From: a virus
Lineage: Duplodnaviria; Heunggongvirae; Uroviricota; Caudoviricetes
DNA length: 64,000 nt
IMG/VR virus record: IMGVR_UViG_3300028805_000083
Coordinates: 37,572 to 101,571 of that record
Direction: 5' to 3' (one strand)
Position 1 is the stretch's first letter. Each line of letters opens with the position of its first letter. Under the pieces are notes generated by a model. The model saw nothing but the letters and a program-made list of their open reading frames with translations. It was not told the origin of the DNA and did not search any database. Made by a program: the position numbers and the translations under genes. Positions 986 to 56,896 of this stretch are shown piece by piece.

Positions 986-1369
986 CTACATTCTAATATG
1001 TATGATATATGCTCTATTATCCTTCACGTCTATTGTTATTTTAGGAGAAACTTTAATTTCTGTCATTATTTTGGCATAAAATAAGTTCATAATATCTAGA
1101 ACAATATCAGACAGTATTGATATTGGATTCCACATAATTGGGTGAAATGAAACGAATCTTTTTGTCTTTCTACCAAACCAAAAATTAGCAGACCTTACTT
1201 CATACTGATAGAATCTAACTTGAAAACATCCAAGCAGATAGAATACAAACAGTACGAAACGATAGAACGTTTCCGTTTCTCCATACCATATTATCCTAAT
1301 GCAATCAGCAAATCTAGGCATTAAGAATCCTTCCTCCAATATGTTTTTATCTAAATCATCTATAAGCAT
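986..1369 (-). CDS. hypothetical protein
   Basis: ORF of 127 aa with a promoter motif upstream at 1386-1394. It ends with a TAG stop. Confidence 0.4.
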   Translation of the reverse strand: MLIDDLDKNILEEGFLMPRFADCIRIIWYGETETFYRFVLFVFYLLGCFQVRFYQYEVRSANFWFGRKTKRFVSFHPIMWNPISILSDIVLDIMNLFYAKIMTEIKVSPKITIDVKDNRAYIIHIRM

Positions 1370-17896: not shown

Positions 17897-17932
17897 TAAA
17901 GACCCTAATAAATTATATTGTTAGGGTCTTCA
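17897..17932 (-). terminator. Strong hairpin at the 3' end of the CCA-enzyme gene
   Basis: AAGACCCTAA...TTAGGGTCTT is a 10-bp stem flanked by A/T-rich sequence. Confidence 0.45.
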
Positions 17933-19319
17933 ATTTATTTTCAACAATTTCAAATGCTTCATCCTTGGTCATATTAGTATTCTCAAAGTAGGCATCTTTA
18001 ACTGCTTCTAGTAGTATACCAACAAGAGGTGAAGACTTGATACTAAACTCTTTCATAATGTCGTTTCCAGATATTGGAAGTTTGACATTTGCAGCTTTTT
18101 CAGCATCTTCCATTTCCTCAATCCTATTAAGAATATCAAGAACTTGTCTCTTTTTCTTACCATAGGTACAATGCAAGTTGTTGGCATTCATTAAGTCAAC
18201 TGTTGCACCAAGGTTTTCTCCAGTGGTATTAATAAATTTTCTAATCTTCTTATCTGGGGGCATTACACCATCAGCGTAAAGCGCAAATGCTCTATGATAC
18301 TTAATGGCTGTTTCTACCGTATTGATAACGTAGTTAGGGAACTTCATTTTCTTGAGGTCATCAGCAGCAACTTCAGCACTAAACTTATCAGGATTAACAT
18401 CCCTTCTACTATCAGTGATAACCTTACCAACATCATGGAACAATGCCGCTAGGCGATTATCAACATATGGCTGTACAGTATCTAACACATTCATGGTGTG
18501 GTCGAAAGTAGAAACCATTGGATTCTTTGACTCATAAGCATAAGTTGTGTCATATATGTCTGGCATTACCCTATGCAATATACCACAGTAGTACATCTTA
18601 CGAATACCGATACTAGGTTTCTCACAAAGCAGTATCTTTGATATTTCTTCACTGATACGCTCTTGAGATATAATGCTTATTCGATGCGCATTCTTAACCA
18701 TACCTAGCCATGTGTTTTTCTCAATTCCCCAACCGAATCTAGTTGAGAATCGAATAACACGCAATATACGCAATGGGTCATCATTGAATGTAACATCTGG
18801 GTCGGTTGGCGTTTTAATAACTTGATTAACAAGGTCATCCAATCCATTGTTGTAGTCATGAATCTTCTCCGTGCTAATGTTGTAATACAAAGAATTGATT
18901 GTAAGGTCACGCCTCTTAGCGTCCTCTTGAATCGTACCATACACGGTATCTGGATTTCTGCTCTCCTTATGATACTGCTCCTTACGAGTCTGAACACACT
19001 CAACCTCAATGTCTTTCAGCTCATCGTTTTTATAAAGCTGAAATTTAGCAGTTCCATAAGTTTCAAACAGAACAGGATTACTTCCTTGTACAAAACATTG
19101 ATGCTTCATTGTCATGTAGTTTGCAAATAGCATTCCTCCGTTTTTAATGTCTACACAAATATCGACATCTTTACAAGGTATTTTTAATAGAAGGTCTCTT
19201 ACACATCCACCAACTAGAAATACATGGTTTTCAAATGCAGTACCTTTGATTGATTCTTGTATTAGTTTAACTAATTTTTTAATCCTTTCGTCAGCGTTTT
19301 TAAACAATATTTCGTTCAT
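17913..19319 (-). CDS. cca: CCA-adding tRNA nucleotidyltransferase with an HD domain
   Basis: HVFLVGGCVRDLLLKIPCKDVDICVD is the pol-beta nucleotidyltransferase head (GGxVRD...DxD). LAALFHDVGK is an HD motif. 468 aa. Confidence 0.8.
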   Translation of the reverse strand: MNEILFKNADERIKKLVKLIQESIKGTAFENHVFLVGGCVRDLLLKIPCKDVDICVDIKNGGMLFANYMTMKHQCFVQGSNPVLFETYGTAKFQLYKNDELKDIEVECVQTRKEQYHKESRNPDTVYGTIQEDAKRRDLTINSLYYNISTEKIHDYNNGLDDLVNQVIKTPTDPDVTFNDDPLRILRVIRFSTRFGWGIEKNTWLGMVKNAHRISIISQERISEEISKILLCEKPSIGIRKMYYCGILHRVMPDIYDTTYAYESKNPMVSTFDHTMNVLDTVQPYVDNRLAALFHDVGKVITDSRRDVNPDKFSAEVAADDLKKMKFPNYVINTVETAIKYHRAFALYADGVMPPDKKIRKFINTTGENLGATVDLMNANNLHCTYGKKKRQVLDILNRIEEMEDAEKAANVKLPISGNDIMKEFSIKSSPLVGILLEAVKDAYFENTNMTKDEAFEIVENKLKTLTI

Positions 19320-42732: not shown

Positions 42733-42990
42733 TGTTGTTTAAGTTTAAAGGTTTATAAAAAAAGTAAATTGTGAATATTGTTTTGCAACTTGCGTTGCCT
42801 TGTTTGTTTCTCAATCACAGTGCAAAGATATATAAAATTTTTGAGATTTCCAAATTTTTAAGAGTTAAAAACTTTTAAAAAAATATCTTTGTTTTTGTGT
42901 TTCATTCTTCTTTCTTAATTACAGTGCAAAGATATATAAAATTTTCGATACTTCCAATTTTTTGCGCGTTAAAAACTGTTAATATTTTAA

Positions 42991-43608
42991 CTACTTCTTT
43001 AAAATCAAAAGGTTACGTTTGTAATCAATGGAAATATCGTCACCTAGTTTTTTTAAAACACTCATACCTAATAGTAAAGGAGCGTCTTGCTGTTCCATAA
43101 CAACGCAAGGTATATTATTAACCTTTATACCTCCCACTTCTACCTCATTTATAATGATTGTATAAGACTTTACAGTATCTCCATTGGCAATTCTACATTG
43201 ACCACTCTCTAGAGTTGAATCATTGAGTAATTTTTGCTTTTTCAAGAACATATACTCAACAACAGAAATAGAAATGTCGGTAGCACCAGTATCCAATGTC
43301 ATCATCATCGATATTCCGTTGATTTTAGTGGGAACAAGGTAGCAATTATCCTCATGCTGTAGTTTGACCGCTAATTTAAAGTCATTTGGAACTTGTTTCA
43401 AAACCTTTGTGGTTTCAGTCTTCGGTATTGTGTCAGATTTGGTAATCTGAATCACTGTGGCTGTGTCCTTTTCGATTCCTAACGCCTTGGCTTCTAATGT
43501 ATCATATGCTCTAGGAAATAGTTTAGAGAACACCCAAATAAATCCCATCACTATTACAACCCCTAAAAAGAGTTTGGTGATACAACTTGATAATGTTATC
43601 TTCTTCAT
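42991..43608 (-). CDS. Membrane-anchored retropepsin-like (clan AA) aspartyl protease
   Basis: N-terminal transmembrane segment. MMMTLDTGATDISIS contains the D-T-G-A catalytic motif. Confidence 0.65.
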   Translation of the reverse strand: MKKITLSSCITKLFLGVVIVMGFIWVFSKLFPRAYDTLEAKALGIEKDTATVIQITKSDTIPKTETTKVLKQVPNDFKLAVKLQHEDNCYLVPTKINGISMMMTLDTGATDISISVVEYMFLKKQKLLNDSTLESGQCRIANGDTVKSYTIIINEVEVGGIKVNNIPCVVMEQQDAPLLLGMSVLKKLGDDISIDYKRNLLILKK

Positions 43609-43611
43609 ATT

Positions 43612-44598
43612 TTATTTACTAAAAATTTCAAAAGCATCATCTACTAGTTTGTCAACCATATCTATTTGATAAGTTGCTAACGCACTCCTAAACATTTTAC
43701 CACTCATTGTACGTCTGCCTTTCCTCTTCTTTCCACCACTAGAAACTGTTTTAACAACCTCTTTCTTTTTTGGCGGCTTCAAGTGTTCAGCTTCAGTTGC
43801 ATATCCAATGTGTGTAAATCCTAGGAATGAGCCGTTCTTCTCAATCTTACAAATCTCAACATGATTAGCACCATACTTGAATTCACCAGTACGAACTTTA
43901 ATCTGCTTAACGTATCTCAATGTTTGGTCTTTAAGACTCATTCCAACTGCAAACATCGCATCAAAGAAATTAGTAAGCTTTTTGCTTCCACTAAGACTGT
44001 TCTGTGTGAGGGGTGAACCTAAGTTTCGTTTTGGGGTATGAGATAGAACTAGTATGCTAGCCCCATACTTCTTTTTAATTTCACATAGATTTTTCATTAG
44101 TTTACCAGCAGTAGTTGCTGTGTCTTTCATATTAACAAGCCAACTCAAGTTATCTACAATTAATATCTTGGAGTTATACTTTATAATATTAGCTTCAATA
44201 GCCTCTATGATGACTTCATCAAATGCTTTCTTAGAATACTCGCAATAATCCCTTACTTTATCACTATCAAGCTCGACCCTAATAAACTTATCGTTAAAGT
44301 TAAACGTTTTCTTGGTTTTTTCATCTGTGTACCTAAGTTCAAATTGCTTCTTACTTAACTCAAAGTCATAATAAAGAATGGTGTCATCACCCTTTAGTCT
44401 TTCAGCAATAGAATTACCAATTTGTACGGCAAGAATACTCTTACCAACATTAGCATCTGCAAAAAGGCAGCAAACTTCATTCTCAAACCAAAACTCTTTC
44501 CAGAGCTTATTTGGATTCTTCTGTGCCTTTGCTTCCTCAATTGCTTGATTAGCAGTCATTGCGCTGAAGATGTCTGTTAAAGTTGGTTTATTTGCCAT
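43612..44598 (-). CDS. RecA-like/AAA_25 P-loop ATPase, RepA-like replicative helicase or primase-associated
   Basis: Walker A ADANVGKS. ASILVLSHTPK resembles RepA/DnaB-like proteins. The start is probably MANKPTLTD near 44598, because the longer ORF would overlap a tRNA-like gene. Confidence 0.55.
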   Translation of the reverse strand: MANKPTLTDIFSAMTANQAIEEAKAQKNPNKLWKEFWFENEVCCLFADANVGKSILAVQIGNSIAERLKGDDTILYYDFELSKKQFELRYTDEKTKKTFNFNDKFIRVELDSDKVRDYCEYSKKAFDEVIIEAIEANIIKYNSKILIVDNLSWLVNMKDTATTAGKLMKNLCEIKKKYGASILVLSHTPKRNLGSPLTQNSLSGSKKLTNFFDAMFAVGMSLKDQTLRYVKQIKVRTGEFKYGANHVEICKIEKNGSFLGFTHIGYATEAEHLKPPKKKEVVKTVSSGGKKRKGRRTMSGKMFRSALATYQIDMVDKLVDDAFEIFSK

Positions 44599-44619
44599 TA
44601 TGTAAAAATTAATGATTAG

Positions 44620-44694
44620 TGTACGGTAGAGGAATCGAACCTCTCTTCTTCTCAGGAAAACTCCTCGACATCCTAACCGATAGACGAACCGCAC
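44620..44694 (-). tRNA. tRNA-like gene with a non-canonical anticodon arm
   Basis: Acceptor GTGCGGT/ACCGTAC, D arm GTCT..GGAT, T arm AGAGG-TTCGATT-CCTCT. The anticodon region folds only as AGGA-GTTT-TCCT. Confidence 0.45.
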
Positions 44695-44865
44695 ATGATG
44701 CTTTTTTAAAATTAACTGCTAGGGGCAGGCTACGTTCTAACGATTATCCCCTCTTAACTGAGTACGCCCATAGGTCTTATTGCGCAATTATCTCCTACTG
44801 CTTTCTCTGCCTTGTGGTAGACCTTTATCAAATTACGTCCGCAGCAGCTAATTATGTTGTTTGTG

Positions 44866-44939
44866 AACCCCCTAGAGGAATCGAACCTCTTTTTCTAGCG
44901 TCACGCTATTGTTGTCCTAGCCATTAGACGAAGAGGGTA
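44866..44939 (-). tRNA. tRNA-like gene with a non-canonical anticodon arm, paralog of 44620-44694
   Basis: Acceptor ACCCTCT/AGGGGGT, D arm GTCT-AATGGCTA-GGAC, T arm AGAGG-TTCGATT-CCTCT. The anticodon region is TAGCG-TGA-CGCTA with a 3-nt loop. Confidence 0.45.
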
Positions 44940-45135
44940 TAGACGAGAAATGATTTTGCTAGCGTTGCTCACTTCTCGCAAAAGCAACAGTTGTACTCAA
45001 CCAACGAGACGGTTTATTTACCCACCAGCTCTAAATCCGACAACCCAGCTAGCTGTTTTAAGACCAGCCAATCTACAAGTTTATGCGCTAATCCTCACGC
45101 AAAAAGGGAAACTTGTTCACCCTTAATTTTTCAAC

Positions 45136-45960
45136 TTATCGTCTAACGTTCCACATACTAGTTGGACTTCCTCCAACTAGAACATCGATATTAGCACCTT
45201 GCTTTGCAGCAATAGTTTCAATCCACTTAAGACTGATAAAATCTTGTGTGCTCAAGCCAAGTTCCTCACGATATGCCTTATCAGCCTTTGCCCTTTGGCG
45301 TTCAGCTTTTTCACGAGCCAACTGTACCTCTGCCTCACGTTCTTGAGTCTGCTTTGCTTGCACAGCCTTTGCTGTGTTGTTCATTTCAGCCAACTGCTCC
45401 TTATTAGGCATAGCCTTACCAATGGTAACTTGTTTTACAACAACTGGAAACTCTTTCTCCTTGGACAACTTTGCCACATAATCTTGCATCTGCTTAAGTA
45501 CCTTTGCATCAATTTCATTTAGAATTGCACGATTACTCATAAGGTCAAAAGGACTATGCTGAGAAATATGGTCACGTACCAAATTACAGTAATAGTTATA
45601 CAAGTTAGTATTGAACCAATCTACACCATAATTCTGCAACAGAATAGGAGACTTACCCTTCTCAATCTGTGTGATAATAATGGTATGGAAATCCAACGGT
45701 GTGTTGTCATCAGAGAACAAATCGTCCATATCCACTTGATGTTTGAACGGAACAATCTTAAATTTCTCAGAAGACGTGCTCCACCAAACCCATGTCAAAC
45801 CTGTCTGTACTGGAGTCATGTCAATGCCACCATGCCCAAAAAACCAAGGCTTGTCAATGAGAACTGACTCTTCATCAGCACCAGGACGCACACCATGACA
45901 AGAACTCATGCTCAACATTGCTACGAGAGCAATAGAAAACATTGCTAAAAATTTCTTCAT
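45136..45960 (-). CDS. SPFH/band-7 domain lipoprotein
   Basis: Signal MKKFLAMFSIALVAMLSMSSC. C-terminal coiled coil AKAVQAKQTQEREAEVQLAREKAERQRAKADKAYRE is typical of HflC/K and stomatin. Confidence 0.5.
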   Translation of the reverse strand: MKKFLAMFSIALVAMLSMSSCHGVRPGADEESVLIDKPWFFGHGGIDMTPVQTGLTWVWWSTSSEKFKIVPFKHQVDMDDLFSDDNTPLDFHTIIITQIEKGKSPILLQNYGVDWFNTNLYNYYCNLVRDHISQHSPFDLMSNRAILNEIDAKVLKQMQDYVAKLSKEKEFPVVVKQVTIGKAMPNKEQLAEMNNTAKAVQAKQTQEREAEVQLAREKAERQRAKADKAYREELGLSTQDFISLKWIETIAAKQGANIDVLVGGSPTSMWNVRR

Positions 45961-46058
45961 AATTCTTTAATTAAAAGTTAAACAAATATGTTAATTCAAA
46001 TTCGATGCAAAGATATGAAAAATAATTGAAATGCCCAAATTATTTTCGTTAATTCTTG

Positions 46059-46442
46059 CTAATCCTTTGCAATTGTCTTGACAATCCAATCAATGAAACC
46101 ATTCTGTATCTTAGATGCCTTATCAATTGGTAGAGCCAAAGCTCCAACACCAGTTAACTCTCCCCATCCACGAACAAGGATGAAATTACCTTTGATATAA
46201 AGCTCGGCTTTGTCAACCACAACGTCTTTCTTGTCATATTTTTCACCACCCTCACCATTCAAGAGTTTGATTATATTGGCAAGTTCATCTTGTGCCTTAT
46301 AAGTGAAAGCACTTAAGCACTTCATACCATTCGAACTGAAACCGTAAATAGGGCAGAATGAATCTTGGTTGTAAGGCGCTTTGTAAAACTCCTCAAACGT
46401 AATGTCCTTACCCTTTAATCTGTCAATTTCTGCGAAATTCAT
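46059..46442 (-). CDS. hypothetical protein
   Basis: ORF of 127 aa. Confidence 0.4.
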   Translation of the reverse strand: MNFAEIDRLKGKDITFEEFYKAPYNQDSFCPIYGFSSNGMKCLSAFTYKAQDELANIIKLLNGEGGEKYDKKDVVVDKAELYIKGNFILVRGWGELTGVGALALPIDKASKIQNGFIDWIVKTIAKD

Positions 46443-46462
46443 AATTACCTATTTTATATTAG

Positions 46463-46539
46463 TTGCAGAGGATGGATTCGAACCAATCGACCTCCTAGGG
46501 ATGAGCCTAGGCGAGCTGACCAAACTGCTCTACTCTGCG
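46463..46539 (-). tRNA. tRNA-like gene with a CUCAU-containing anticodon loop of 6 or 8 nt and a bulged T stem
   Basis: Acceptor (C)GCAGAG/CTCTGCA, D stem GAGC/GCTC, palindromic anticodon stem CCTAGG around CTCATC. Confidence 0.4.
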
Positions 46540-46645
46540 GTGCTATCTGTTTATATCGTCTGTTATAGCAAAGACCTAAGTACTTAGAATGAAATCGAAC
46601 TTTCAAAAGGTAATGGCCTGTCACCTAATGACTCAGATTCCATCG

Positions 46646-46725
46646 TGGACCAGGTAGGGCTTGAACCTACGTGTAACCAACTACGGTTTCAACTGCTTAT
46701 GAGGCAGAGCCGATACAAGTCCAAA
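46646..46725 (-). tRNA. tRNA-like gene with a Met-like anticodon loop CUCAUAA
   Basis: T arm GTAGG-TTCAAGC-CCTAC and anticodon stem-loop CTGC-CTCATAA-GCAG. The 5' end is poorly defined. Confidence 0.4.
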
Positions 46726-47068
46726 TCGCCAAAGGAACTTTCAAATTAATTCTATCGCACATGCCGTGTTTTACGCCTAGACTCTAACACGTTTAAGCCA
46801 ATATCCTTCCGTTTCAGCGCATATACGAATCCTATGTTAGACTCTCTTTGGCTATATCTTTATTTAATAATTCCAATCATCATCAAACTCGTCATCAAAG
46901 ATGGAGTAATCGTCATAGTCTTCATCGTAATCCTCTTCATGAACCTCATCGTAGTCATCGTAAAGGGATTCATCTAAATAATCGTTATATTCGTCAATCA
47001 TAGTTTATAATGTTTTTTTTTGTTTCACAATGCAAAGATACAAAAAAAAATTGGAATAGCCAAATTTA

Positions 47069-47461
47069 TTAACTTTTTTTAAATATTGTACTAACCCCAA
47101 CTATTATCCAAATTATACCGTATAAAACATAAAAAATAAGGGCAATAATTATCATTCCAAAAAAGGTGATAGATAGTTTCAAAAAATTGTTTACAAAGTT
47201 TTGGATATTTGTAGTTTTCTTTTTTCCTTCATCTATTTTTTTCTGTTTCGCTATGAAGTCGGTTTTAGGTATCATAGGAACTAACTGCAACTTGTCATTT
47301 TCATCTATCTTGAGACCAATATCAACTCGTCCATCGTTAAAAATAAGATATTCTTTGCCATTTGCATCTTTTTCCTTTACACCTTGGAAATAATAGGTAT
47401 CAGCATATACAGATGATGAAAATATTAATGCCGCTAAAAAAAATAATATTCTACTAATCAT
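47069..47461 (-). CDS. hypothetical secreted or membrane protein
   Basis: N-terminal signal plus a C-terminal transmembrane segment. Confidence 0.4.
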   Translation of the reverse strand: MISRILFFLAALIFSSSVYADTYYFQGVKEKDANGKEYLIFNDGRVDIGLKIDENDKLQLVPMIPKTDFIAKQKKIDEGKKKTTNIQNFVNNFLKLSITFFGMIIIALIFYVLYGIIWIIVGVSTIFKKS

Positions 47462-47479
47462 ATCAACATTAAAAAATAT

Positions 47480-47851
47480 TCAGTAGGACATACGTGATGG
47501 GATACACCCCCTCACACCCCCTCTTGGGTCTTCACAATCACCGTTATATCTAGGTATAATGTGTATATGGCAATGCATAACGGTTTGTCCAGCAGCCTCG
47601 CCACAATTCATCCCTATATTATACCCATTAGGTTTGTATTTATCATCAAGTATTTCTTTAACGTGGTCAACTGCGCAAACAAGAGCACCCAATTCCACTT
47701 GGTTTAAATCAAAATAGGTTTTACAATGTCTTTTTGGAATTAATAGGGTATGCCCTTCCGAGACTGGATAACCATCTAAAATAGCCACCCATAAAGAATC
47801 TTGATATATTATTCTATCTTCTTTAACGCCACAAAATACACAATCTTCCAT
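47480..47851 (-). CDS. HIT-family nucleotide hydrolase
   Basis: HTLLIPKRH and the histidine triad HCHIHIIPR. Confidence 0.85.
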   Translation of the reverse strand: MEDCVFCGVKEDRIIYQDSLWVAILDGYPVSEGHTLLIPKRHCKTYFDLNQVELGALVCAVDHVKEILDDKYKPNGYNIGMNCGEAAGQTVMHCHIHIIPRYNGDCEDPRGGVRGCIPSRMSY

Positions 47852-48351
47852 TATTCTTCTACGGCTATACGTTTTATCTCACCAATTACAACATCCAAAG
47901 CCTCATTAATGGCTGCTTCTATGTTCTTGCCTCTCAACCCATCAACATTGATTTTGCTGTATTTGAAATCTACTTTCTTGTCAGTAAGGGTAGCCACACA
48001 AATCCAAACCGTATTATCTGAGTCTTCATCAGCCGCCATAGGTGGAACTACGTTACCCACAACAGCCACACAAACGTCCACATTAAGTTTATAAATGCCG
48101 TTGAGAGCCATTTGGCAAGCTGCTTGGGAACTAACAAGCCCATTGTTTTTAAACACGTTGTGAGAGACTTCTAGCATTTTCTCCATGTGGTCTTCATCGA
48201 CTGTAACAATTGTACCGCCATAAACGGTTGAAAGTCCACACATGCTTGAGATTGATGCGCCAAGCAAACCACTAGTGCAATGCTCAACAGTTCCGATGGT
48301 TAGACCAGCGTTCAGAAGCTCTAACCCTAATACTCTTAATTTATCCCTCAT
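47851..48351 (-). CDS. pncC: CinA C-terminal domain protein / NMN deamidase
   Basis: TVEHCTSGLLGASIS matches the CinA-C ESCTGG motif. 166 aa. Confidence 0.7.
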   Translation of the reverse strand: MRDKLRVLGLELLNAGLTIGTVEHCTSGLLGASISSMCGLSTVYGGTIVTVDEDHMEKMLEVSHNVFKNNGLVSSQAACQMALNGIYKLNVDVCVAVVGNVVPPMAADEDSDNTVWICVATLTDKKVDFKYSKINVDGLRGKNIEAAINEALDVVIGEIKRIAVEE

Positions 48352-48352
48352 T

Positions 48353-48718
48353 CTATATTACTATTTTTTTACCATACAGTTCCATCTGTAGTTTCAGCAT
48401 TTTTTTGTTAATGTTTTGACGCTGTTTTCTAAGATTCTCTATTACATAGTTATATGCCTCTTCTTTATCAAGGTATAACTTGGCATAACCGTAATCATAT
48501 ACACTAGATTTGGTTATATAAAACCCTCCATAATGTATTGTATGATACACATGTTCTTGGCATCTTCCTAATTTGTCAACTAGTTTAAGTTCTATGGTGT
48601 TATTACCATAAAATCTGCCTTTCTTTATTTTACCTTTTTTAGCTTTTATGGAATTACCTTTAACTTCATAGTAGTCTATGATTTGTCCTTCCATTTGTTT
48701 TAAATCATCAAATGTCAT
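48353..48718 (-). CDS. hypothetical protein
   Basis: ORF of 121 aa. Confidence 0.4.
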   Translation of the reverse strand: MTFDDLKQMEGQIIDYYEVKGNSIKAKKGKIKKGRFYGNNTIELKLVDKLGRCQEHVYHTIHYGGFYITKSSVYDYGYAKLYLDKEEAYNYVIENLRKQRQNINKKMLKLQMELYGKKIVI

Positions 48719-48792
48719 TGCATAATAATTTTACTTTGTGCAAATGTATAAAAAAAAATTGAGAAAGACAACCATCTTCCTCAACTTTAAGC

Positions 48793-49200
48793 TTATTTAA
48801 CAGTTAGTGCTTTTATTTTTATCTGCCTAGCAACTTCCATCATCGTTTCGCTTGTGATGCTGTTCTCGAAATAAGTATATATCTCTTCTTTATTTTTTAA
48901 TACAGCACCCTCTTTGTGGTAGACTGTTTTCATGAGAAACCTTTCTCCATATTTCTCATATAATGGGTCAAAACTTTTACGAACAACCAATTTTGAAGCC
49001 ACCTCAATAGAATCACGCAGTTCATCGGCATCAACTGAATAATACCCCTCAGTATTGTGTGCTTTCAAGGTGTATTCTAGTTTAACGCTATCTTTAAGTG
49101 CCTCATAAGTTGTAAATGCACACTGAATGTCTAAACCAGGGGTTTCATTACATGATGCGAGACATACAATCGCTAAAATTGCTAATAAAATCTTTTTCAT
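48793..49200 (-). CDS. lipoprotein
   Basis: Signal MKKILLAILAIVCLASC. A promoter and an operator-like palindrome lie at 49231-49285. Confidence 0.45.
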   Translation of the reverse strand: MKKILLAILAIVCLASCNETPGLDIQCAFTTYEALKDSVKLEYTLKAHNTEGYYSVDADELRDSIEVASKLVVRKSFDPLYEKYGERFLMKTVYHKEGAVLKNKEEIYTYFENSITSETMMEVARQIKIKALTVK

Positions 49201-49277
49201 ACTGTTTGTTATTAATTGGTTTAATTTGGTGCAAAGGTACGAAAAAAAGTTGAACTAACCAAACAATCAGTTCAACT

Positions 49278-49508
49278 TTAACAATCTTTAACTTTACATT
49301 TGTTTTGTGCTCTGTTTATCTTGTTGTAAAAGTTAATCCTTTTCAGTTTATCAGTAGACTTATTGGCTGTAGCCAAATAAGAGTTCTTAGCTTTTTTCTT
49401 TTTATTCTCGCTTGCCATATCAATAAGGGTCAACATTAACTCTTTTAACTTCTCCACACTTTTTACAACGATACATCTTAACGAAAGGATTACCAACTTC
49501 ATAACCAT
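49278..49508 (-). CDS. hypothetical basic protein
   Basis: ORF of 76 aa. Confidence 0.3.
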   Translation of the reverse strand: MVMKLVILSLRCIVVKSVEKLKELMLTLIDMASENKKKKAKNSYLATANKSTDKLKRINFYNKINRAQNKCKVKDC

Positions 49509-49727
49509 AATCCTCCCATTTATGCTTGCACATCGTTGCTTCTAATTTTTTGAGATATTCTATCATAATAGTAAATTAGGTTTACTTGTACCAACCTTAA
49601 AGGTATCCTTTTATCCATCAAGGAACTAGGGCAAGGGGCTAATCCTCGCACCGCATTACTGCTTGCCTACCATTTATTACGTGGTTTGCGCTTGTCTAAC
49701 TATTTCAGCACCCAACGTGGGAGCACC

Positions 49728-49812
49728 AAGCCGTAGTGAGCGTAGTGGGATTCGAACCCACGTAGCTTATTGCCATAATAGTTTTAGAGACTATCCCAAT
49801 CGACCTCTCTGG
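49728..49812 (-). tRNA. Type-II suppressor tRNA with anticodon CUA (reads UAG), tRNA-Tyr-like and supF-like
   Basis: Acceptor GAGCGTA/TACGCTC is a 7/7 match. D stem CCA/TGG with an 11-nt loop. Anticodon arm ATAGT-CTCTAAA-ACTAT gives C34-U35-A36. The variable arm is 16 nt. T arm GTGGG-TTCGAAT-CCCAC. The bacterial tRNA-Tyr loop CUGUAAA differs by a single G-to-C change. Confidence 0.7.
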
Positions 49813-49829
49813 CATACGCTCATTATCTC

Positions 49830-50216
49830 TTATTCTGAAAGCCTTTTTAACTTATTATTCAGAACAAGCAGCATACCTTCAGCAAGAAGCTTTTCATCGG
49901 TATGCTTCTTGATTGCTTCTTTCAGCCTCTCTATTGCCACTTTCTTGGCTTCTTCTGCGCTATCATACACAAGCTGTCCATTAACGAGATAATCACCATT
50001 CTCAAGGTCAGTTCTACCGATTTTGAACTTGGGTCTAGTTTTACCATCGTTAATAGGTTCTTTGACTACTTTTGATTCTATTACATCGTAGCCATTTATG
50101 TATATGGCAGTATCGCCAATATTTAAACTTGCTGCTTTTTTCATATTGCAAAGATACGAAAAAAAAATTGAATTATCCAAATTTTTTAAGAATTTTTTAT
50201 AAAAAAAAAACACCAT
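49830..50216 (-). CDS. hypothetical protein
   Basis: ORF of 128 aa. Confidence 0.4.
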   Translation of the reverse strand: MVFFFYKKFLKNLDNSIFFSYLCNMKKAASLNIGDTAIYINGYDVIESKVVKEPINDGKTRPKFKIGRTDLENGDYLVNGQLVYDSAEEAKKVAIERLKEAIKKHTDEKLLAEGMLLVLNNKLKRLSE

Positions 50217-50247
50217 AAGCTAAAGCCTATAGTGCTTTTATATCGCA

Positions 50248-50613
50248 TCAGTCTTCGGTTACTGTTTTCAAATTTTTAAATAGCTCTTCGTGTCCGAAAA
50301 CCGCCAAGGCTGTTGTTTTATAGTTTAAATCTGGTTCTTTAAACTCGGTATAGTCAATGCCATACCCTTCAAGCTTTCTTTTCCACTTATCTACGTCAGC
50401 GTATAGATAAATCAAATAATCGTTACTCCATTCAAGACTATTGGGATGCTCAATCATCCATTGAGCCACTGCATGACCGCCTTGAACACAACCATATACT
50501 GGTTTTAACGCTCTATCTACGAGTATGTATAACTTCTTTTTAATCATTGCCTTCTGCGGATGCAAATTTGTTATACTCCTCGATAACGTAATTTTTAAAA
50601 AGTGGAATTGCAT
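50248..50613 (-). CDS. Peptidyl-tRNA hydrolase, PTH2-like
   Basis: KKLYILVDRALKPVYGCVQGGHAVAQW resembles the PTH2 core (K..lVvR.DL.M..GK.aAQ..HA). 121 aa. Confidence 0.5.
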   Translation of the reverse strand: MQFHFLKITLSRSITNLHPQKAMIKKKLYILVDRALKPVYGCVQGGHAVAQWMIEHPNSLEWSNDYLIYLYADVDKWKRKLEGYGIDYTEFKEPDLNYKTTALAVFGHEELFKNLKTVTED

Positions 50614-50854
50614 AATTCTCAGTCATATCACCACCACTACCAACTAGTCTACCACTGTAGAGACCTTTATAACAACGGTTTCTTACTTCTTCCTCAAGAT
50701 ACTTGTCACGCTCTTCACCCTCAATACGATGCTTAAAAATGTAATAAGCAACATAATCTTCGTGAGAATGTACGCAATCAGCTTTAATGTACTCCTTAAA
50801 CTTAAGATACTGTTCTCTAGTGGTGGCTTCGTTTGTAAAAATTTTCTTTTCCAT
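50540..50854 (-). CDS. hypothetical protein
   Basis: ORF of 104 aa. Confidence 0.35.
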   Translation of the reverse strand: MEKKIFTNEATTREQYLKFKEYIKADCVHSHEDYVAYYIFKHRIEGEERDKYLEEEVRNRCYKGLYSGRLVGSGGDMTENYAIPLFKNYVIEEYNKFASAEGND

Positions 50855-51139
50855 ATGATATATTTTTTAATTTGTTTGTTATTATTAATGAATTTAAAAT
50901 ACTTCACTTATATTCCCCATCCAAACTAAAATATATCAGGACCACGAATCAGTTTCAGCTACCAAAACTCGCTAGAAACCTACCAAAAACTGTTTTTTCT
51001 CATAATGATAATTAATTTAAATTTGTTATTAAAAAACGGAAGCTTTTTTTCTAGAATAAATGATTTCAAGTCAAGTCCTATAGAAATTTGCTGTTAGCTT
51101 CCTTGATATATCCGCTTGTTTAGCAGAAAGGATTAGTTG

Positions 51140-51263
51140 CAGGGACTGACGGACTCGAACCGCCATCTTTTATTAACAGTTAAAGGTACAATCTGTTCCG
51201 AAGTCGAGACTGTGTGATTCCTTAAATCGCAACAAACCACTCTTACCATTGAGCTAAATCCCT
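51140..51263 (-). tRNA. tRNA gene carrying an intervening sequence of about 50 nt
   Basis: 5' half AGGGATT-TA-GCTC-AATGGTAA-GAGT and 3' half GGCGG-TTCGAGT-CCGTC-AGTCCCT have complementary acceptors but lie 124 nt apart. The insert contains a 25-nt element that also occurs at 15551-15575. Confidence 0.5.
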
Positions 51264-51610
51264 ATATAAATACAAAAGGCTGAGAATTTGACCTTATTGT
51301 TGATGCCTTTATGCAAGCGTTGGAACTTGTTCTTCACACGCCACCTTACGATGGACGTAGACACCATGCACGATGATTTTGTGAAAACCACCTAAACTCT
51401 TACTGATTTAAACCTTTCGGTACAGAATCATAACATTCATTTCACCACCAAGCTGTTGCGCATTTTGACTAGATGCCTCCAGTCCACTCAGATGACTACT
51501 TTTACTAGTTTGTTGGATTCCTTGCGAGTCACCAACCACTTCATATTACAGAAGTATAAGTGCATTTTATCTGCTCAGTGTCGCACACTTTCGCTTTTAA
51601 TCTTTATTTT

Positions 51611-51688
51611 AAAAGACGACAGGATTCGAACCTGTAACACTCGGCTCCTCAAGCTGATGCTCTACCGTTGAGTTACACTTTCACAACT
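51611..51688 (-). tRNA. tRNA-like gene, anticodon possibly GAG, with mismatched stems
   Basis: T arm ACAGG-TTCGAAT-CCTGT and D arm ACTC-AACGGTA-GAGC. The anticodon arm is imperfect. Confidence 0.4.
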
Positions 51689-52400
51689 AATGGAAGACGA
51701 GGTGCGACTCTTAGAATCTGTGTCTTTTGGACACAGCCCACTAAATCGCCTTCCTATGCCAAACCCACCACAAGTTTGTAGCACTAATAAACACTCTCAG
51801 CCTTACGGTTCTTAACGCTTATAACATTCATCATGCCTTTCACGTTAAGACAAATGTGTATTTGAACCCAACACGCCAACTGGTGATTATTGTATCAAGT
51901 CCCACAAGGTAATCTATTGTATCACTACTCAACCCAAGCTGTTAACCTAGGTAGCATACTACACGATTTTACCTACCGAACAGTATACCGTACCTTGTGC
52001 TTTTCAGTGAAATGCCCTAGTTTCCTAGAACATCTGAGTCGGCTTAGTTGTCAATATCCGTCTCATTTATCCCATCACTGGATTATCCTTCCATCTGGCC
52101 ACGAAAGCTGACCATTAGCCTATGCCTTTTGCAAGACATTTCCTCTTGGAATCGGCTTATTCTTTTGGGTATTATTTCCATTTTGGTTTATTATAATCGG
52201 TAAACTGCTTCCTCTTACGAGGTGGGTCTATATCCCAAGCTCCGATTTTTTACACCATTATAGAATACCTTCCCCAATGCATTGTTTTCTAGTACACGTT
52301 CTCTAGAATTATGGCTTCCGAAGTCACCATAGTCATGGATTGTTTAACCACATAAAACCCACTTTTACCGTTGTCTACAGCACGAAAAGGCATATCTCGT

Positions 52401-52542
52401 TGGTTAGAGCAGATTTGCACTGCTGAAGCTTCCGAAGAAACACATCAAGCACGAACTTGATGTCCATTTGTCTACATCGTCATTACTGACGTTCTCCTCT
52501 GGTACTAACCAAAAGGTGGTTTTTTAACTTGTCCACCACAAG
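52401..52542 (-). ncRNA. Candidate structured ncRNA, copy 1 of 2
   Basis: A paralog of about 142 nt of 52702-52843. It has a terminal 8-bp closing helix, an internal C(UUCG)G hairpin and a CATCAAG...CTTGATG hairpin. A GGTGG...CCACC hairpin plus a U-run lies at its minus-strand 5' side. Confidence 0.4.
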
Positions 52543-52701
52543 GTATAGTGTGTAGTATTGTAAAGGCTAATTCATTTTACAGAACTAATTTAATGGTAAA
52601 GGACATCTGCTATGTTTCATACAGTTGTGTGTTTGTCGCAACCTCACTTTCCTCGCCAACCTTTACTGCCGATTGCACCTGAGCGTTTATACTACATTTG
52701 T

Positions 52702-52843
52702 TGGTAGAGCTAGATTTGCACTAGCGAAGACTCCGAAGAGCCACATCAAGCACGAACTTGATGCCCATTTGTCTACATCGTCATTGCTGACGTTCTCCTC
52801 TGGTATCTACCAAAAGGTGGTTTTTTAACTTGTCCACCACAAG
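52702..52843 (-). ncRNA. Candidate structured ncRNA, copy 2 of 2
   Basis: About 85% identical to copy 1. The terminal helix shows compensatory changes (TTGGTAGA/TCTACCAA against TTGGTTAG/CTAACCAA). Confidence 0.4.
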
Positions 52844-52861
52844 AATAGTTGCGGGAGTCAG

Positions 52862-52936
52862 GCTCGAACTGACACGATGCGTTTCTAGCGTAGAAGGCTT
52901 ATGAGACCCACATGTTACCATTACATTATCCCGCTA
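52862..52936 (-). tRNA. tRNA-like gene with a CUCAUAA loop (CAU) and an extended variable region
   Basis: Acceptor AGCGGGA/TCCCGCA is a 6/7 match. D arm ATGT-AATGGTA-ACAT. T arm GTCAG-TTCGAGC-CTGAC. Confidence 0.45.
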
Positions 52937-53901
52937 TTTATAAATTTATTGAATTCATCTTCAACAAACTGTGGTTTATATTTACCCATATCTTTTATAA
53001 TATAAGGTATATAGCCACAATTCTTAATCTCTTTAATCTTTATTTTATCTCTATTTTGAACTTGTTCAACAGAATGGTCTTCTTTTATCTTTTGATAATG
53101 CCATTTCCCATTCCATAAAACAGCCACTTTAATGTCTTCTATAATAACATCAGCGTCCCAACCATTAAATATTGGCTCATTATGTTTTACATTATTGAAA
53201 TGTTTTTCACATAATTCACAGAAATATTTTTCATTTTTAGAACGTCTATTTTCTCCTTGAACTTTGGCAGAATTCTTTCCAGCAGTACTAAGTTTTTTTA
53301 TTGCGTCCTCAGAAAGATATTTCTTCCTATTAATTCGATATTCATTCAAGCATTCTCTAGAACAGAACATTCTAGTTGCACCACTTTCATTTAAATGGTA
53401 TTTTCTACCACATATACGGCATATATATTCTTTTCGTGGAGCTATAGTATTAGCAATGTTTTTCTTCTTTAGCTCATAAGATTCGCCAAATTTAGAGCGA
53501 TAATATTTTAATATTGATTCACTAGTTTTCCTTTTAGTTTCTTCACTTGGTTTTTCTCTTAACCTATTGTTGTATTTAGCTGCACAACTTTTAGAGCAGA
53601 AAAAATGTTTTGTTTTAGATGCTTTATAAGCACTAGCAGTAACTTCTACATTCTTACCACAATTTTCACAATGGAAATGATTCTTTTTTCTATGTGAAAA
53701 AGCAGAACAATCAATTGAACAGTATTTTAATCTTCCTCTGTTATTTTTTAACTCGAATGTTATCTGTTTTTTTTCGCCATAAAATATTTTTCCGCAATGT
53801 TCGCATTCTAATGCTAATTTATCTGTGCTTTTTGCATTTTTATATTCTTCATCTGTATATCTAACTATCATAATACATATTCTTATATATATAAATATCA
53901 C
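52921..53901 (-). mobile_element. Zn-ribbon repeat protein with a C-terminal Vsr/PD-(D/E)XK-like nuclease domain, probably a homing endonuclease
   Basis: Several CxxC...CxxC modules. GWDADVIIEDIKVAVLWNGKWHY resembles the Vsr core (D.vf...k.avFvdGcFWH). It sits inside the tRNA array. Confidence 0.5.
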
Positions 53902-54036
53902 GATGGTTGCGAAAATACGATTCGAACATATGTTTTTTAGGCTAAAATTCGGAAACTATATTTTTTCACATCTTAAATTTGCAGTTTAATGTTAAAAAAT
54001 TAATTGCTGTAAGTTTCCTTGATTAATTTCAACTTT

Positions 54037-54072
54037 GCAAAGATATAAAAAATTTTTTTAATATCCAAATTT
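54037..54072 (-). promoter_or_regulatory. Representative Bacteroidetes sigma-A promoter (-33 TTTG, 19-nt spacer, -7 TATCTTTG) driving 53901..52921
   Basis: Minus strand reads ATTTGGATATTAAAAAATTTTTTATATCTTTGCAAAG. The plus-strand motif gcaaagata...ccaaat recurs about 28 times in the window. Confidence 0.65.
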
Positions 54073-54073
54073 T

Positions 54074-54343
54074 TTAAGAACTTTTTTCAAGTTTTTTGAA
54101 AAATTCATTCAACTTGGTCAATTCTGACAATCCATTTGCAAGTTCTTCTGCGTTGACAATCAACTCATTCTTACCTTCTTCAATACTATTTATCTGAGTA
54201 TGAAGAGATTCCATGAGCTTACCCTTTAGGGTGTCACGATATTTTACGCTAACAATCTTCTGAGCTTCTTGCTTCTCATAGCCAGCTTCACAAAGATTTT
54301 TATATAACTCGTTTCTAAATTCTTTTTCTAAAATCTTACTCAT
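54074..54343 (-). CDS. hypothetical coiled-coil protein
   Basis: ORF of 89 aa with a promoter at 54367-54410. Confidence 0.4.
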   Translation of the reverse strand: MSKILEKEFRNELYKNLCEAGYEKQEAQKIVSVKYRDTLKGKLMESLHTQINSIEEGKNELIVNAEELANGLSELTKLNEFFKKLEKSS

Positions 54344-54403
54344 TGCTTATATTTTCGTTTAACAATGCAAAGATATAGAAAATAATTGAGACTTCCAAAT
54401 TTT

Positions 54404-54985
54404 TTAACGAATATTAACAAAATCAATTAATAAAATATCTTTGTCAGTTCCATTTTTAATAATTTCTTTATTTTTCCTCTTAGCATATAGCCAAGGCCAC
54501 CAATCATCTATTAATTTAGGGGCTTTCACTGAAGAATAATTTTCTTCGCAAGAAGGCTCATCCTTAAATTTGTAATCATATTCCCAATTATAAAGATTTC
54601 TTCCGCACCAAAATGTGATGTTTTTATATTCATCAGAAATATGTTTACAAAAATCTACAAAGTTTTCTTTTGAGAAAGTTGTATATTGGTTTTTATTTCT
54701 AACCTCATGCAAAACTCTAATATAGCAGTCCTTTTTGGAATTAATATATTCTAAATCATTTACCAAATCAAACCAGCGATATTTATATTCCATTATACCG
54801 TGCGCTAAAACCAAACCTTCAGTTTTGTCAAATCTTACTCTTAAATCGAAACACCTAACACCATATTTCTCATATTGAGTTTTAATATCAACGCTTTGGC
54901 ATTTTGACATGAATTTTAACGGATATTGCCACCATTTTTTAGGTTTTAAATATGTCCAAGAATTATGTGAACCTAATATGCTCAT
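54404..54985 (-). CDS. hypothetical protein
   Basis: ORF of 193 aa. Confidence 0.4.
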   Translation of the reverse strand: MSILGSHNSWTYLKPKKWWQYPLKFMSKCQSVDIKTQYEKYGVRCFDLRVRFDKTEGLVLAHGIMEYKYRWFDLVNDLEYINSKKDCYIRVLHEVRNKNQYTTFSKENFVDFCKHISDEYKNITFWCGRNLYNWEYDYKFKDEPSCEENYSSVKAPKLIDDWWPWLYAKRKNKEIIKNGTDKDILLIDFVNIR

Positions 54986-55392
54986 TGATTTTCAGATATT
55001 TTAATGTGGACCTAGAGGGATTCGAACCCTCGTTCCAGAAATTCGCCTCATAAGAAATTATACAAGCTTCCCCAAAGTGTCCGAAAACACCGCCTTTGAG
55101 ACCACCTCATTTTGAGAAAACGAGGAAAACTAGGGGTGGATGACTAGAGTCACCGATTCCACCATCTTTTAAATAAAAAATATTAAAAAGAATAATGCTA
55201 GGATGTTCTGTTCCTAAGAGCCTAGCCTCTCGGCTCACATTACGCAGCTATAGCGTACTCGTAAGCAGGAGAATTAACATTCTCGCCAGTTATATTTTTT
55301 GCTATTTCAAGTGTATGCCCACTGCTTGTTTCTTACCAAACTCAACTCATAACGGTCAAAACCAAATAGGCCCAAATTATTTGTATTTTTGG

Positions 55393-55466
55393 TGTTGAAG
55401 GGGTGACTCGAACACCCAACCTATTGAATATCAGTCAATTGCGCTAACCAATTGCGCCACTCCAAC
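55393..55466 (-). tRNA. tRNA-Ile(GAU)
   Basis: Acceptor GTTGGAG/CTTCAAC, D arm GCGC-AATTGGTTA-GCGC, anticodon arm ATTGA-CTGATAT-TCAAT, T arm GGGTG-TTCGAGT-CACCC. Confidence 0.7.
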
Positions 55467-55634
55467 ATTAATAATGCTCTAACCTACTGAGCTACCACTC
55501 GATTATATAACTAGTTTGTGGAATTCCGATTCTTCACCACACAAGTTTCACTAGACCTCCTAATGTTATATGCGTCCGTTATAGGATACCAACGTTATAC
55601 GCTTGCCAATTTATTTATCGTACTGCGGAACTAG

Positions 55635-55859
55635 TTATAGACTTACCGTTTCGCAACTTTTTTTAAACTCTTCTAGAGTGCCATCAAAAATCCAATCTGA
55701 CACCCTATCATCTTTTACATTCTTTACTACAATTGTAACACGAGATTTGCCATCTTTCTCTTCCTCTTTGATGAGCCTAATATCTTCATATCTAAATATT
55801 GCAACTTTTACGCTTCTTGTCGGAAATCTCACTTGCAAGAATAGTTTACCATTTGCCAT
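55635..55859 (-). CDS. hypothetical protein
   Basis: ORF of 74 aa. Confidence 0.35.
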   Translation of the reverse strand: MANGKLFLQVRFPTRSVKVAIFRYEDIRLIKEEEKDGKSRVTIVVKNVKDDRVSDWIFDGTLEEFKKSCETVSL

Positions 55860-55934
55860 TATAAATATTGTTTTATGTTCAAAAAGTACGGAAACGTTTT
55901 AATACATTAAGTTGCTCTACCTAACTGAGCTACA

Positions 55935-56000
55935 AGGAGTATAAACCCCTCGATGGGATTCGAACCCATGACCTACTGCTTACAAGGCTTATTAAAAAAC
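55935..56000 (-). other. Juxtaposed tRNA halves in permuted order, a 3' half then a 5' half. See findings.
   Basis: On the minus strand the sequence reads ...ATGGG-TTCGAAT-CCCAT-CGAGGGG-T-TTATA-CTCCTTG-TA-GCTC-AGTTAGGTA-GAGC-A-ACTTA.... The strands CGAGGGG and CTCCTTG are complementary, with two G-U pairs. Confidence 0.4.
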
Positions 56001-56313
56001 TATTGCTGTCTGTTTCCTTAGCGCTTGAGGTCGGATTTGCACCTTCTGTCTCTGTCTCCATCTTTCGACTTTGTACCAGCGTTTATACTACTTAACACTT
56101 CTCAAGCATGTTTCGCCTACTGTACCCATGTGATAACTTGAACGATGTATCACATCAAGCCATCGCAGACTTGTCTTACATTAACGTAGTTAAGACCAAT
56201 ATACGGCATTCTTAACCTAAAGTATGCTTACGAGCACGTTACAGATATTCATTGTTTTGTATGTCTTGCAGATAAGCCTTTAACGTGCAAAAGGCTATTT
56301 TTCAGTATATCTA

Positions 56314-56421
56314 AAATGAAAACCACAATGAGGACATAAAAACACCTCACCATTCTCGTCAATTGCTTTGGAAATGTCAATTTTGACATTATTTCCACAT
56401 CTTACACATTTTACCTCCATA
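56314..56421 (-). CDS. Zn-ribbon mini-protein of about 35 aa (not in the ORF track)
   Basis: Hand translation gives MEVKCVRCGNNVKIDISKAIDENGEVFLCPHCGFHF, with CxxC...CxxC. Confidence 0.3.
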
Positions 56422-56498
56422 ACATTTATTTTTGTAATGCAAAGATATGAAAAAAAAATTGGAATAACCAAATATTTTAACGTTTTTTTAGAAAAGTG

Positions 56499-56573
56499 TT
56501 GGACTGGTGGGAGTCGAACCCACGATTTTCACCTTGTAAGGGTGCTGTCCTAAACCACTAGACGACAGTCCAG
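56499..56573 (-). tRNA. tRNA-Val(UAC)
   Basis: Acceptor TGGACTG/CAGTCCA, D arm GTCT-AGTGGTTTA-GGAC, anticodon arm CACC-CTTACAA-GGTG, T arm GTGGG-TTCGACT-CCCAC. Confidence 0.65.
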
Positions 56574-56896
56574 TTTGGCACGAACATTTTGTCATATATA
56601 CGTGTAGAATCTTTATGTTAAGCGAAACAATACAAAATTGTCAAGGGGTTTGCACCCTTATCGTTCTATTCAGAATAGAGTGCTTTGTTCTCTACCTCGT
56701 CTATTGCTAGACAAACTCAGTGCCTTTGTATCAGTCATGGTCTATTACAGACCAACCTTGCCTTTGTATTTGTAAGCAAACCAACCGATAACCCCACCCA
56801 AAATGAATTCAATCATAGTTGTAATATTTTTAAAAGATTAGACAATTAATTTGATGTTGCAAAGATATAAAAAATATTTTTAATTTCCAAATAAAA

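Follow-up and report, generated by a model that had tools for sequence, protein, structure and literature searches.

A phage tRNA gene with the anticodon CUA raises the questions of whether it encodes a genuine amber suppressor, which amino acid the product would insert at UAG codons, and whether the phage needs it to read its own genes. In the window, i.e., the whole 64-kb stretch of phage DNA analyzed here (34% G+C, about 80% covered by minus-strand ORFs in the standard code), ARAGORN calls such a tRNA at 49736..49821 on the minus strand, and the Rfam family RF00005 matches 49737..49821 on the same strand with 56.4 bits (E 1.8e-9), above the gathering score of 29. The gene reported in the preliminary description at 49728-49812 is thus real, but the coordinates were shifted by about 9 nt toward its 3' end and the strand had not been given. 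The tRNA is of class II shape and 85 nt long up to the discriminator A73. Its 5' part reads GAGCGTA TG CCAG AGAGGTCGA TTGG G ATAGT CUCUAAA ACTAT, followed by the variable region TATGGCAATAAGCTAC and then by the 3' part GTGGG TTCGAAT CCCAC TACGCTC A. This folds into a cloverleaf with the acceptor stem GAGCGTA/TACGCTC in canonical 7/5 acceptor/T-stem geometry, a D stem CCA(G)/(T)TGG of 3 bp plus a G.U pair with G18G19 in the D loop, the anticodon arm ATAGT-CUCUAAA-ACTAT with its 7-nt loop, a 16-nt variable region (thus longer than 10 nt) forming a stem-loop with a 4-bp stem, and the T arm GTGGG-TTCGAAT-CCCAC with the canonical loop TTCGAAT. Every structural detail of the earlier hand-drawn fold (acceptor, D, anticodon and T arms and the 16-nt variable arm) recurs in the ARAGORN structure, and the CUA anticodon holds as well: the program places cta, and no other triplet, at positions 34 to 36 behind U33. 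As read from its sequence, 49737..49821 is confirmed as a genuine phage-encoded tRNA of the amber suppressor type. The gene encodes no CCA end, so that the CCA-adding enzyme of the phage would be needed for maturation.

The same tRNA is found on IMG/VR and metagenome contigs of 129,491, 153,679, 412,362, and 412,753 bp and on short contigs, which are syntenic with the window and share 70% to 85% nucleotide identity with it around the tRNA. The 412,753-bp contig is record IMGVR_UViG_3300021387_000463; further genomes of the lineage are OCVV011357491.1, ERZ27280283 k141_110949 (403,100 bp), and ERZ28613021 scaffold_3 (410,826 bp). Among 9 distinct orthologs from other contigs, 95.9% of stem cells are paired and 9 pairs have changed on both sides in a compensatory manner (values reached by 0 of 500 shuffles), and the CUA is invariant in all 9. 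The anticodon loop otherwise shows variation among orthologs. Covariation together with the never-changing CUA indicates that the gene is under selection as a tRNA. Its position is equally stable, given that in every genome of the lineage that we examined it lies just downstream of a homolog of the gene for a conserved 121-aa protein. This protein has 695 homologs, and several of them are found on contigs of 387 to 430 kb, which suggests a genome size of about 410 kb for the phage of the window. The suppressor is a vertically conserved phage gene at one syntenic slot in a lineage of rumen jumbo phages. In relatives with genomes of 403 to 411 kb, the same slot holds type I orthologs of 75 to 76 nt. 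The two listed with coordinates in Table 1 (L265 and L267) have variable loops of only 4 to 5 nt and Rfam scores of 56.2 and 49.8 bits; one of the type I orthologs carries exactly the acceptor stem of the window tRNA plus A73, and the other has a D arm in class II style. Acquisition or loss of the long variable arm has therefore taken place inside a single orthologous tRNA gene. An 89-nt tRNA(CUA) in another locus (L029) was rejected as an ortholog because it has no homology to the window tRNA.

Table 1. Positions of the suppressor tRNA, its neighbors, and related tRNA genes. Coordinates refer to the window unless a locus handle is given.
Feature	Location	Strand	Evidence or remark
Amber-suppressor-type tRNA(CUA)	49737..49821	-	ARAGORN; Rfam RF00005, 56.4 bits; orthologs; covariation
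Anticodon C34 U35 A36	49782..49784	-	ARAGORN: cta at tRNA position 35; invariant in 9/9 orthologs
Conserved gene (121 aa), marker of the syntenic slot	50251..50613	-	tblastn identity of 62-75% in relatives
ORF (104 aa)	49830..50144	-	ATG 50144-50142, TAA 49832-49830; stop 8 nt before the tRNA
Candidate Bacteroidota-type promoter	50149..50181	-	TTTG 50181-50178, 21-nt spacer, TAtcTTTG 50156-50149; upstream of ORF and tRNA
Non-coding stretch directly 3' of the tRNA	49573..49736	-	86-93% nucleotide identity to L003, L104, L107, L109
CCA-adding enzyme (tRNA nucleotidyltransferase)	17913..19319	-	phrog_2244, 4.4e-62; PF01743, PF12627
Type I suppressor orthologs	L265 10405-10479; L267 10327-10402; also L266, L268, L269		Slot comparison
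Class II shaped tRNA with class I anticodon	38979-39062	-
Class II shaped tRNAs with class I anticodons	L103 10872-10958, 12335-12419, 12967-13049, 13187-13269
Class II shaped tRNAs with class I anticodons	L112 1842-1927; L113 1590-1673, 1696-1781

The surroundings bear out the preliminary description of an amber suppressor tRNA in a tRNA-rich region of a phage genome. On the minus strand of the window, and only there, ARAGORN finds 14 tRNAs and 1 tmRNA. The protein-coding genes are of accessory type, with functions in tRNA and RNA repair that include the CCA enzyme and RNA ligases, HNH nucleases, a BspA-type LRR protein, NAD salvage genes (NAPRTase, NADAR, CinA, Nudix, and isochorismatase), DHFR, HIT, and EndoV; no aminoacyl-tRNA synthetase or release factor was found among the proteins of the window. 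Several of these proteins resemble proteins of Prevotella Lak megaphages at 31% to 44% identity. The 104-aa ORF immediately upstream of the tRNA is conserved in four related loci (L003, L104, L103, and L002) at 41% to 64% amino acid identity; neither Pfam nor PHROG gave a match for it, and the neighboring proteins likewise lack an informative family. The ORF and the tRNA are probably co-transcribed. An intergenic repeat (TGCAAAGATA... on the plus strand) occurs in 12 copies within 42820-61350 (e.g., at 50146-50186 and 49229-49269), and on the coding strand it reads TTTG-N(~21)-TAnnTTTG, which we take to be the promoter consensus of Bacteroidota (the -33/-7 elements of Bacteroides). These Bacteroidota-type promoters share the region with the suppressor, and the repeat points to a host among the Bacteroidota and to transcription of the tRNA island by the host RNA polymerase. 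On the 3' side, the 165-nt non-coding stretch 49573..49736 is more conserved than the flanking genes. It matches no Rfam family and folds no better than its shuffles (z 0.6), and it may be a processing or termination element.

Other RNA genes and conserved DNA lie close by. The 2-kb interval 50908-52920 is free of ORFs and is still 72% to 85% conserved in relatives. It contains a 124-nt Rfam tRNA match with an insert of about 30 nt (51140-51263), another tRNA (51611-51682), and two tandem copies of 132 nt (52411-52542 and 52712-52843). The tmRNA (55004-55373, minus strand) encodes the tag peptide GENVNSPAYEYAIAA, and nearly the same tag is found in L002, L003, L265, and L267; a related 831-kb rumen megaphage has SmpB beside its portal gene (L121 6119-6589).

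With regard to the coding capacity of the phage itself, we find that TAG is still used as a stop in the window, as stated before. It ends 13 of 94 minus-strand genes (14%, including 986..1369), next to 19 with TGA and 62 with TAA, and is thus not depleted. At orthologous stops, TAG, TAA, and TGA replace each other, e.g., for the gene at 31911-32555 (minus strand) that ends at the same position with TAG in the window, L111, and L114, with TAA in L110, and with TGA in L112. Such interchange identifies TAG as an ordinary terminator in this region. No in-frame TAG and no gene split by TAG was found in the window or in any related locus that we fetched, all of them from the accessory region. The coding coverage of the window, 0.77 in the standard code, becomes 0.80 if TAG is translated and 0.83 if TGA is; in Lak, translating TAG raises the coverage from 0.65 to 0.94. 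In the DNA sampled here, the genome thus lacks the marks of recoding, and late genes lie outside this sample. Back-up stops are not enriched after the TAG of window genes compared with other stops (p = 0.86). Because TAG ends 14% of the local genes without such enrichment, strong suppression would leave many phage proteins with C-terminal extensions. In the readable part of the genome, UAG is an ordinary terminator.

An 820-aa protein encoded at 25691-28153 (minus strand) ends with ...LA-TAG-PPF-TAA in the window, while its closest ortholog in L110 (86% identity) ends with ...N(AAC)-PPF-TAA and so keeps the three codons after the TAG; as a single case, this conservation of PPF could be due to chance at such divergence. 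An apparent TAG signal in L003 was rejected since it came from spurious ORFs over RNA genes. A split gene for an RNA polymerase beta-like protein in a related 430-kb phage was set aside as well: it is interrupted in L143 (14736-16400) and intact in L142 (14725-16467), and what interrupts it is not a TAG but about 150 nt of inserted DNA, probably an intron, crowded with stop codons.

How, then, would the phage use a suppressor? We tentatively favor, with somewhat less than even confidence, that the tRNA acts without any recoding of the genome and causes read-through of UAG stops of the host or of the phage, as has been proposed for Zeta crAss-like phages. A possible but less probable role, with Lak and crAss-like phages as models, is that of a decoder for recoded late genes (structural and lysis genes) located outside the window. 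For phages of Bacteroidota there is precedent for suppressors encoded in standard-code early regions while the late genes are recoded; the suppressor is conserved across the whole lineage; and the DNA inspected here, which comes entirely from accessory or tRNA regions, makes up roughly one quarter of a genome that appears to span about 410 kb, with the late genes outside. The stop codon usage described above speaks against this role, as does the lack of TAG-split genes in any fetched locus. Furthermore, the loss of the arm and the variation in the anticodon loop suggest little constraint on the precise identity of the tRNA, and suppressors without recoding have been documented (PMC12386605). 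An example of the latter kind is a type I tRNA(CUA) at 16928-17001 of L084 (IMGVR_UViG_3300035208_004923, 425,361 bp), i.e., a suppressor beside un-recoded late genes: it lies 5.4 kb from a portal gene without internal TAG, and among the neighboring large ORFs the only TAG codons are found toward the C-terminal ends of three.

Searches toward the late genes gave the following results. Over 8 kb beyond the left end of the window, all genes are small and use the standard code (Ga0310691_10000530, which covers window positions 1-37919); the right end is matched only by contigs of about 1 kb, and a search with a protein from this end gave no useful match toward late genes. Neither megablast nor blastn found a relative of the window among INPHARED phages, and the portal protein of Lak-A1, used as a single query, as an alignment, and as a hand-made DNA motif, matched no contig of the window lineage. 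A search with a portal protein from the rumen reached megaphages of 674 to 831 kb with sparse TAG-to-Gln recoding, for which no tie to the suppressor tRNA was found, and the RNA polymerase beta-like gene of the related 430-kb phage matched a different group of phages on contigs of 250 to 350 kb. Sparse amber recoding is seen in the Lak-like rumen megaphage L120/L121 (ERZ27280374 k141_1466377, 831,161 bp) at 9641-12983 and in L035 at 9980-11833. The N-terminal part of the portal gene of these megaphages has 2 to 3 in-frame TAG codons, some of which are aligned with Q in homologs, and two near-identical rumen megaphage contigs differ by TAG versus CAG at two sites.

Which amino acid the suppressor would insert can be approached through the identity elements that bacterial aminoacyl-tRNA synthetases recognize. 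For tyrosine in bacteria, these are A73, U35, and G1-C72, and G73, which tRNA-Ser has, acts as an antideterminant that blocks TyrRS (PMC9976931). All 9 orthologs have A73, U35, and G1-C72. Their acceptor stems are GAGCGTA, GGGCGTA, or GGGCATA, and GGGCGTA (of the L003 ortholog) resembles GGGAGTA and GGGCGAG of Tyr tRNAs, unlike GGAGAGG of Ser tRNAs. The closest among 17 tRNAs of a related 430-kb phage is tRNA-Tyr(GUA) with a score of 32 to 40, compared with at most 19.5 for the others. The anticodon loop CUCUAAA differs from CUGUAAA of real tRNA-Tyr at position 34 only, and in the type I orthologs the acceptor stem, A73, and CUA are all still present, which fits a tyrosine identity and not a serine identity that depends on the long arm. 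Several features are unlike tRNA-Tyr, however. The suppressor has C34 in place of the moderately strong Tyr determinant G34, and it also lacks the combination of A20b with a Tyr-type variable arm, i.e., 1 nt, a 3-bp stem, and 2 unpaired nt on the 3' side (as in the Tyr references L142, L179, and L189); suppressor variable arms instead have 1 to 2 nt on the 5' side, a stem of 4 to 5 bp, and no unpaired 3' nucleotides. On balance, we regard a supF-like tRNA with tyrosine-type identity as plausible and as the best reading of the suppressor, held at about even confidence. The preliminary description had arrived at the same reading from the one-base difference to the tRNA-Tyr loop, and A73, U35, and G1-C72 support it, but the loop is just as well a single G35U change away from that of tRNA-Ser(CGA). 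To judge from sequence comparison, the two parents Tyr and Ser(CGA) fit about equally well. In our ranking of amino acids, tyrosine at this even level is followed by serine and by glutamine or lysine, each of which we consider improbable.

For serine, the tRNA would be a supD-like suppressor derived from tRNA-Ser(CGA), with its loop CUCGAAA, by G35U and charged via the long arm by SerRS, which does not read the anticodon; serine identity indeed rests mainly on this arm (PMC9976931). The body of the tRNA argues for such a parent. A long arm in the Ser orientation is combined with a Ser-type D arm, whose motif TGCYAGAGNGGTCNATTRGG is nearly confined to bacterial tRNA-Ser: a scan of bacterial genomes gave 120 hits, and 111 of the 115 called tRNAs among them are tRNA-Ser (68 with CGA) versus 2 tRNA-Tyr. 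The anticodon arm, the T arm, and the layout of the variable arm are near-identical to those of Ser(CGA) tRNAs (e.g., L150 and L153), and global alignment scores are highest for Ser (41 to 45.5, compared with 36 to 41.5 for the best Tyr; 114 Ser versus 4 Tyr candidates). The tRNA body thus looks like a tRNA-Ser(CGA) scaffold. Its ends do not: all orthologs have A73 rather than G73, and their acceptor stem with G1-C72, R2-U71, and R3-Y70 is unlike the conserved GGAGAGG of Ser with its G2-C71. Position 20b is G in 111 of 111 bacterial Ser tRNAs and A in Tyr, and it is variable among the suppressor orthologs (G, A, or T, with G in the window). From the orthologs of the 403 to 411 kb relatives the arm has been lost, although their acceptor stem, A73, and CUA are retained at Rfam scores of 50 to 56 bits, so that charging by the arm-dependent SerRS is not possible for them. 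We hold a serine-inserting suppressor to be improbable.

Insertion of glutamine or lysine, as in phages with code 15, is about as improbable. Here, C34 and U35 of the CUA anticodon would draw GlnRS or LysRS, and the tRNA would decode TAG as Gln in late genes. In E. coli, many engineered tRNAs with a CUA anticodon are charged with Gln or Lys, and recognition through the anticodon would agree with the loss of the arm from orthologs. A73 is also found in phage tRNA-Gln and in Lak suppressors of this host range, the Lak-like megaphages of the rumen show TAG/CAG polymorphisms with TAG aligned with Q, and the paralog closest to the suppressor within the lineage is a tRNA-Lys(CUU) with a long arm. 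Every reassignment of TAG so far described for phages is to Gln (PMC10607447, PMC9523058). In turn, G1-C72 differs from the U1-A72 of the Lak suppressor LakA1_a and of phage tRNA-Gln, global similarity to tRNA-Gln and tRNA-Lys of the related phage is near zero, and in-frame TAG was seen nowhere in the lineage DNA that we fetched. With its class II shape and G1-C72, the suppressor is unlike the Gln-like suppressors of Lak phages, which are type I, in agreement with the earlier statement that it is not of the Gln type. That statement had offered Tyr, Ser, or Leu as likenesses. Alignment upholds the first two, whereas an origin from tRNA-Leu can be excluded by scores of 13 to 17 versus 36 to 45 for Ser and Tyr, and neither the Leu-type D loop (GGAATTGGTAGAC) nor overall similarity to Leu is present.

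The arm itself is a poor guide because type I orthologs occupy the same slot and because long arms are also found on Lys, Thr, Trp, Met, and Cys tRNAs of this lineage, which means that the long arm is not diagnostic of isotype here. In the suppressor, class II shape by itself, as far as the sequences tell, does not point to Tyr, Ser, or Leu. The other class II shaped tRNAs (with a 3-bp D stem and a long arm) carry the class I anticodons Met CAU, Trp CCA, Thr CGU/UGU, Lys CUU, and Cys GCA (Table 1). Most of these anticodons are one substitution away from a Ser anticodon, and the acceptor stems and discriminators fit the new anticodon, e.g., G1-C72, C2-G71, and U73 for Thr. It looks as if a Ser-type scaffold had been recruited for other amino acids. 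Three odd tRNA calls on the minus strand of the window are a tRNA with a 6-nt anticodon loop ("ca") at 46462-46539, an 88-nt "Met(CAU)" with an unpaired long variable region at 52848-52935, and a 92-nt "Val" at 62675-62766 beside an Rfam tRNA at 62595-62666. One can extend the idea of scaffold recruitment to the suppressor: a Ser-type class II scaffold would have been rebuilt for Thr, Lys, Trp, Met, Cys, and amber codons with re-tuned acceptor ends, and its amber member would insert Tyr at UAG codons of late genes. We give this a slim chance. Known TAG-recoding phages all use Gln, so that Tyr would be unprecedented if recoding exists; if true, the phage would have a code with TAG = Tyr, unlike the single amber reassignment that has been reported for phages (TAG = Gln).

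Very improbable is the view that the tRNA(CUA) is no working decoder and instead a tRNA-Pyl, a tRNA copy in decay, or the result of a chance mutation in the anticodon, for which one could quote several odd tRNAs in the lineage and the ARAGORN label "tRNA-Pyl" (given only because the anticodon is CUA), but against which stand the invariant CUA and covarying stems over 9 diverged orthologs, Rfam scores of 50 to 56 bits, and the canonical G18G19 and TTCGAAT T loop. The hallmarks of tRNA-Pyl are a 3-nt variable loop, a small D loop without G18G19, a 6-bp anticodon stem, and pyl genes nearby. We rejected this assignment given the 16-nt arm, the canonical D and T loops, and the 5-bp anticodon stem of the suppressor, and no Pyl gene family was found among the window proteins scanned.

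Our favored course of events thus involves tyrosine and no recoding. The host RNA polymerase would transcribe the tRNA together with accessory genes, and the transcript would be trimmed before CCA is added. Host TyrRS would then charge the tRNA with tyrosine, given that A73, U35, and G1-C72 are present and the blocking G73 is absent, and the charged tRNA could compete with RF1 at UAG as a natural supF-like suppressor.

Suppressors of Bacteroidota phages are already known, but those described have been treated as Gln-type and linked to TAG-to-Gln recoding. A class II suppressor with Tyr determinants on a Ser-like body would mean either that a different amino acid is inserted at UAG or that the amino acid matters little, as could be the case for a purpose like the takeover of host translation. 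The lineage should also be useful for the study of shifts in tRNA identity, since the arm comes and goes in one gene and sister tRNAs for Lys, Thr, Trp, Met, and Cys have long arms, and it warns against assigning the isotype of phage tRNAs from class II shape alone.

Among known systems, E. coli supF (tyrT, GUA to CUA) shares with the phage suppressor the class II shape, G1-C72, A73, and the loop CUCUAAA (the tRNA-Tyr loop with only G34 changed to C), and both would insert Tyr. However, supF is a laboratory mutation whereas the phage suppressor is a natural conserved gene. The phage tRNA resembles tRNA-Ser in its D arm, anticodon stem, T arm, and variable-arm layout, and some of its orthologs have no long arm; in real tRNA-Tyr, the arm consists of a 3-bp stem and then 2 unpaired nt. 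With E. coli supD (serU, CGA to CUA), it is the body that agrees, being almost identical to bacterial tRNA-Ser(CGA) with one G35U between them, while A73 instead of G73, the non-Ser acceptor stem, the variable position 20b, and the arm-less orthologs differ. The suppressors of Lak and crAss-like phages (code 15, TAG = Gln) are likewise CUA tRNAs among many phage tRNAs in phages of Bacteroidota hosts. Those of Lak-A1 are type I (73 and 75 nt) with U1-A72 in LakA1_a and belong to a genome dense with in-frame TAG, whereas the window tRNA is of class II with G1-C72 and no in-frame TAG is present in the sampled DNA.

Closer in behavior are Zeta crAss-like phages, which conserve "non-functioning" CUA suppressors in diverged genomes without amber recoding and for which a role in perturbing the host or countering its defence has been proposed (PMC12386605). 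The phages studied here also keep a CUA suppressor across diverged genomes, with no amber recoding seen in the sampled part. TAG stops of Zeta crAss-like phages are rare and always backed by a nearby stop, while TAG ends 14% of genes here without back-up enrichment, and the phage group and the tRNA architecture differ. Long arms on tRNAs with anticodons other than those of Leu, Ser, or Tyr are known from nematode nev-tRNAs (PMC3333845) and from allo-tRNAs (PMC5389517), and in our lineage they come with CUA, CUU, UGU, CGU, CCA, CAU, and GCA. Allo-tRNAs have an 8/4 or 9/3 acceptor/T-stem geometry compared with 7/5 in the tRNAs of the lineage, and for this reason the suppressor was rejected as an allo-tRNA. 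While nev-tRNAs keep their Leu identity, the acceptor stems and discriminators of the phage lineage appear adapted to the new anticodon.
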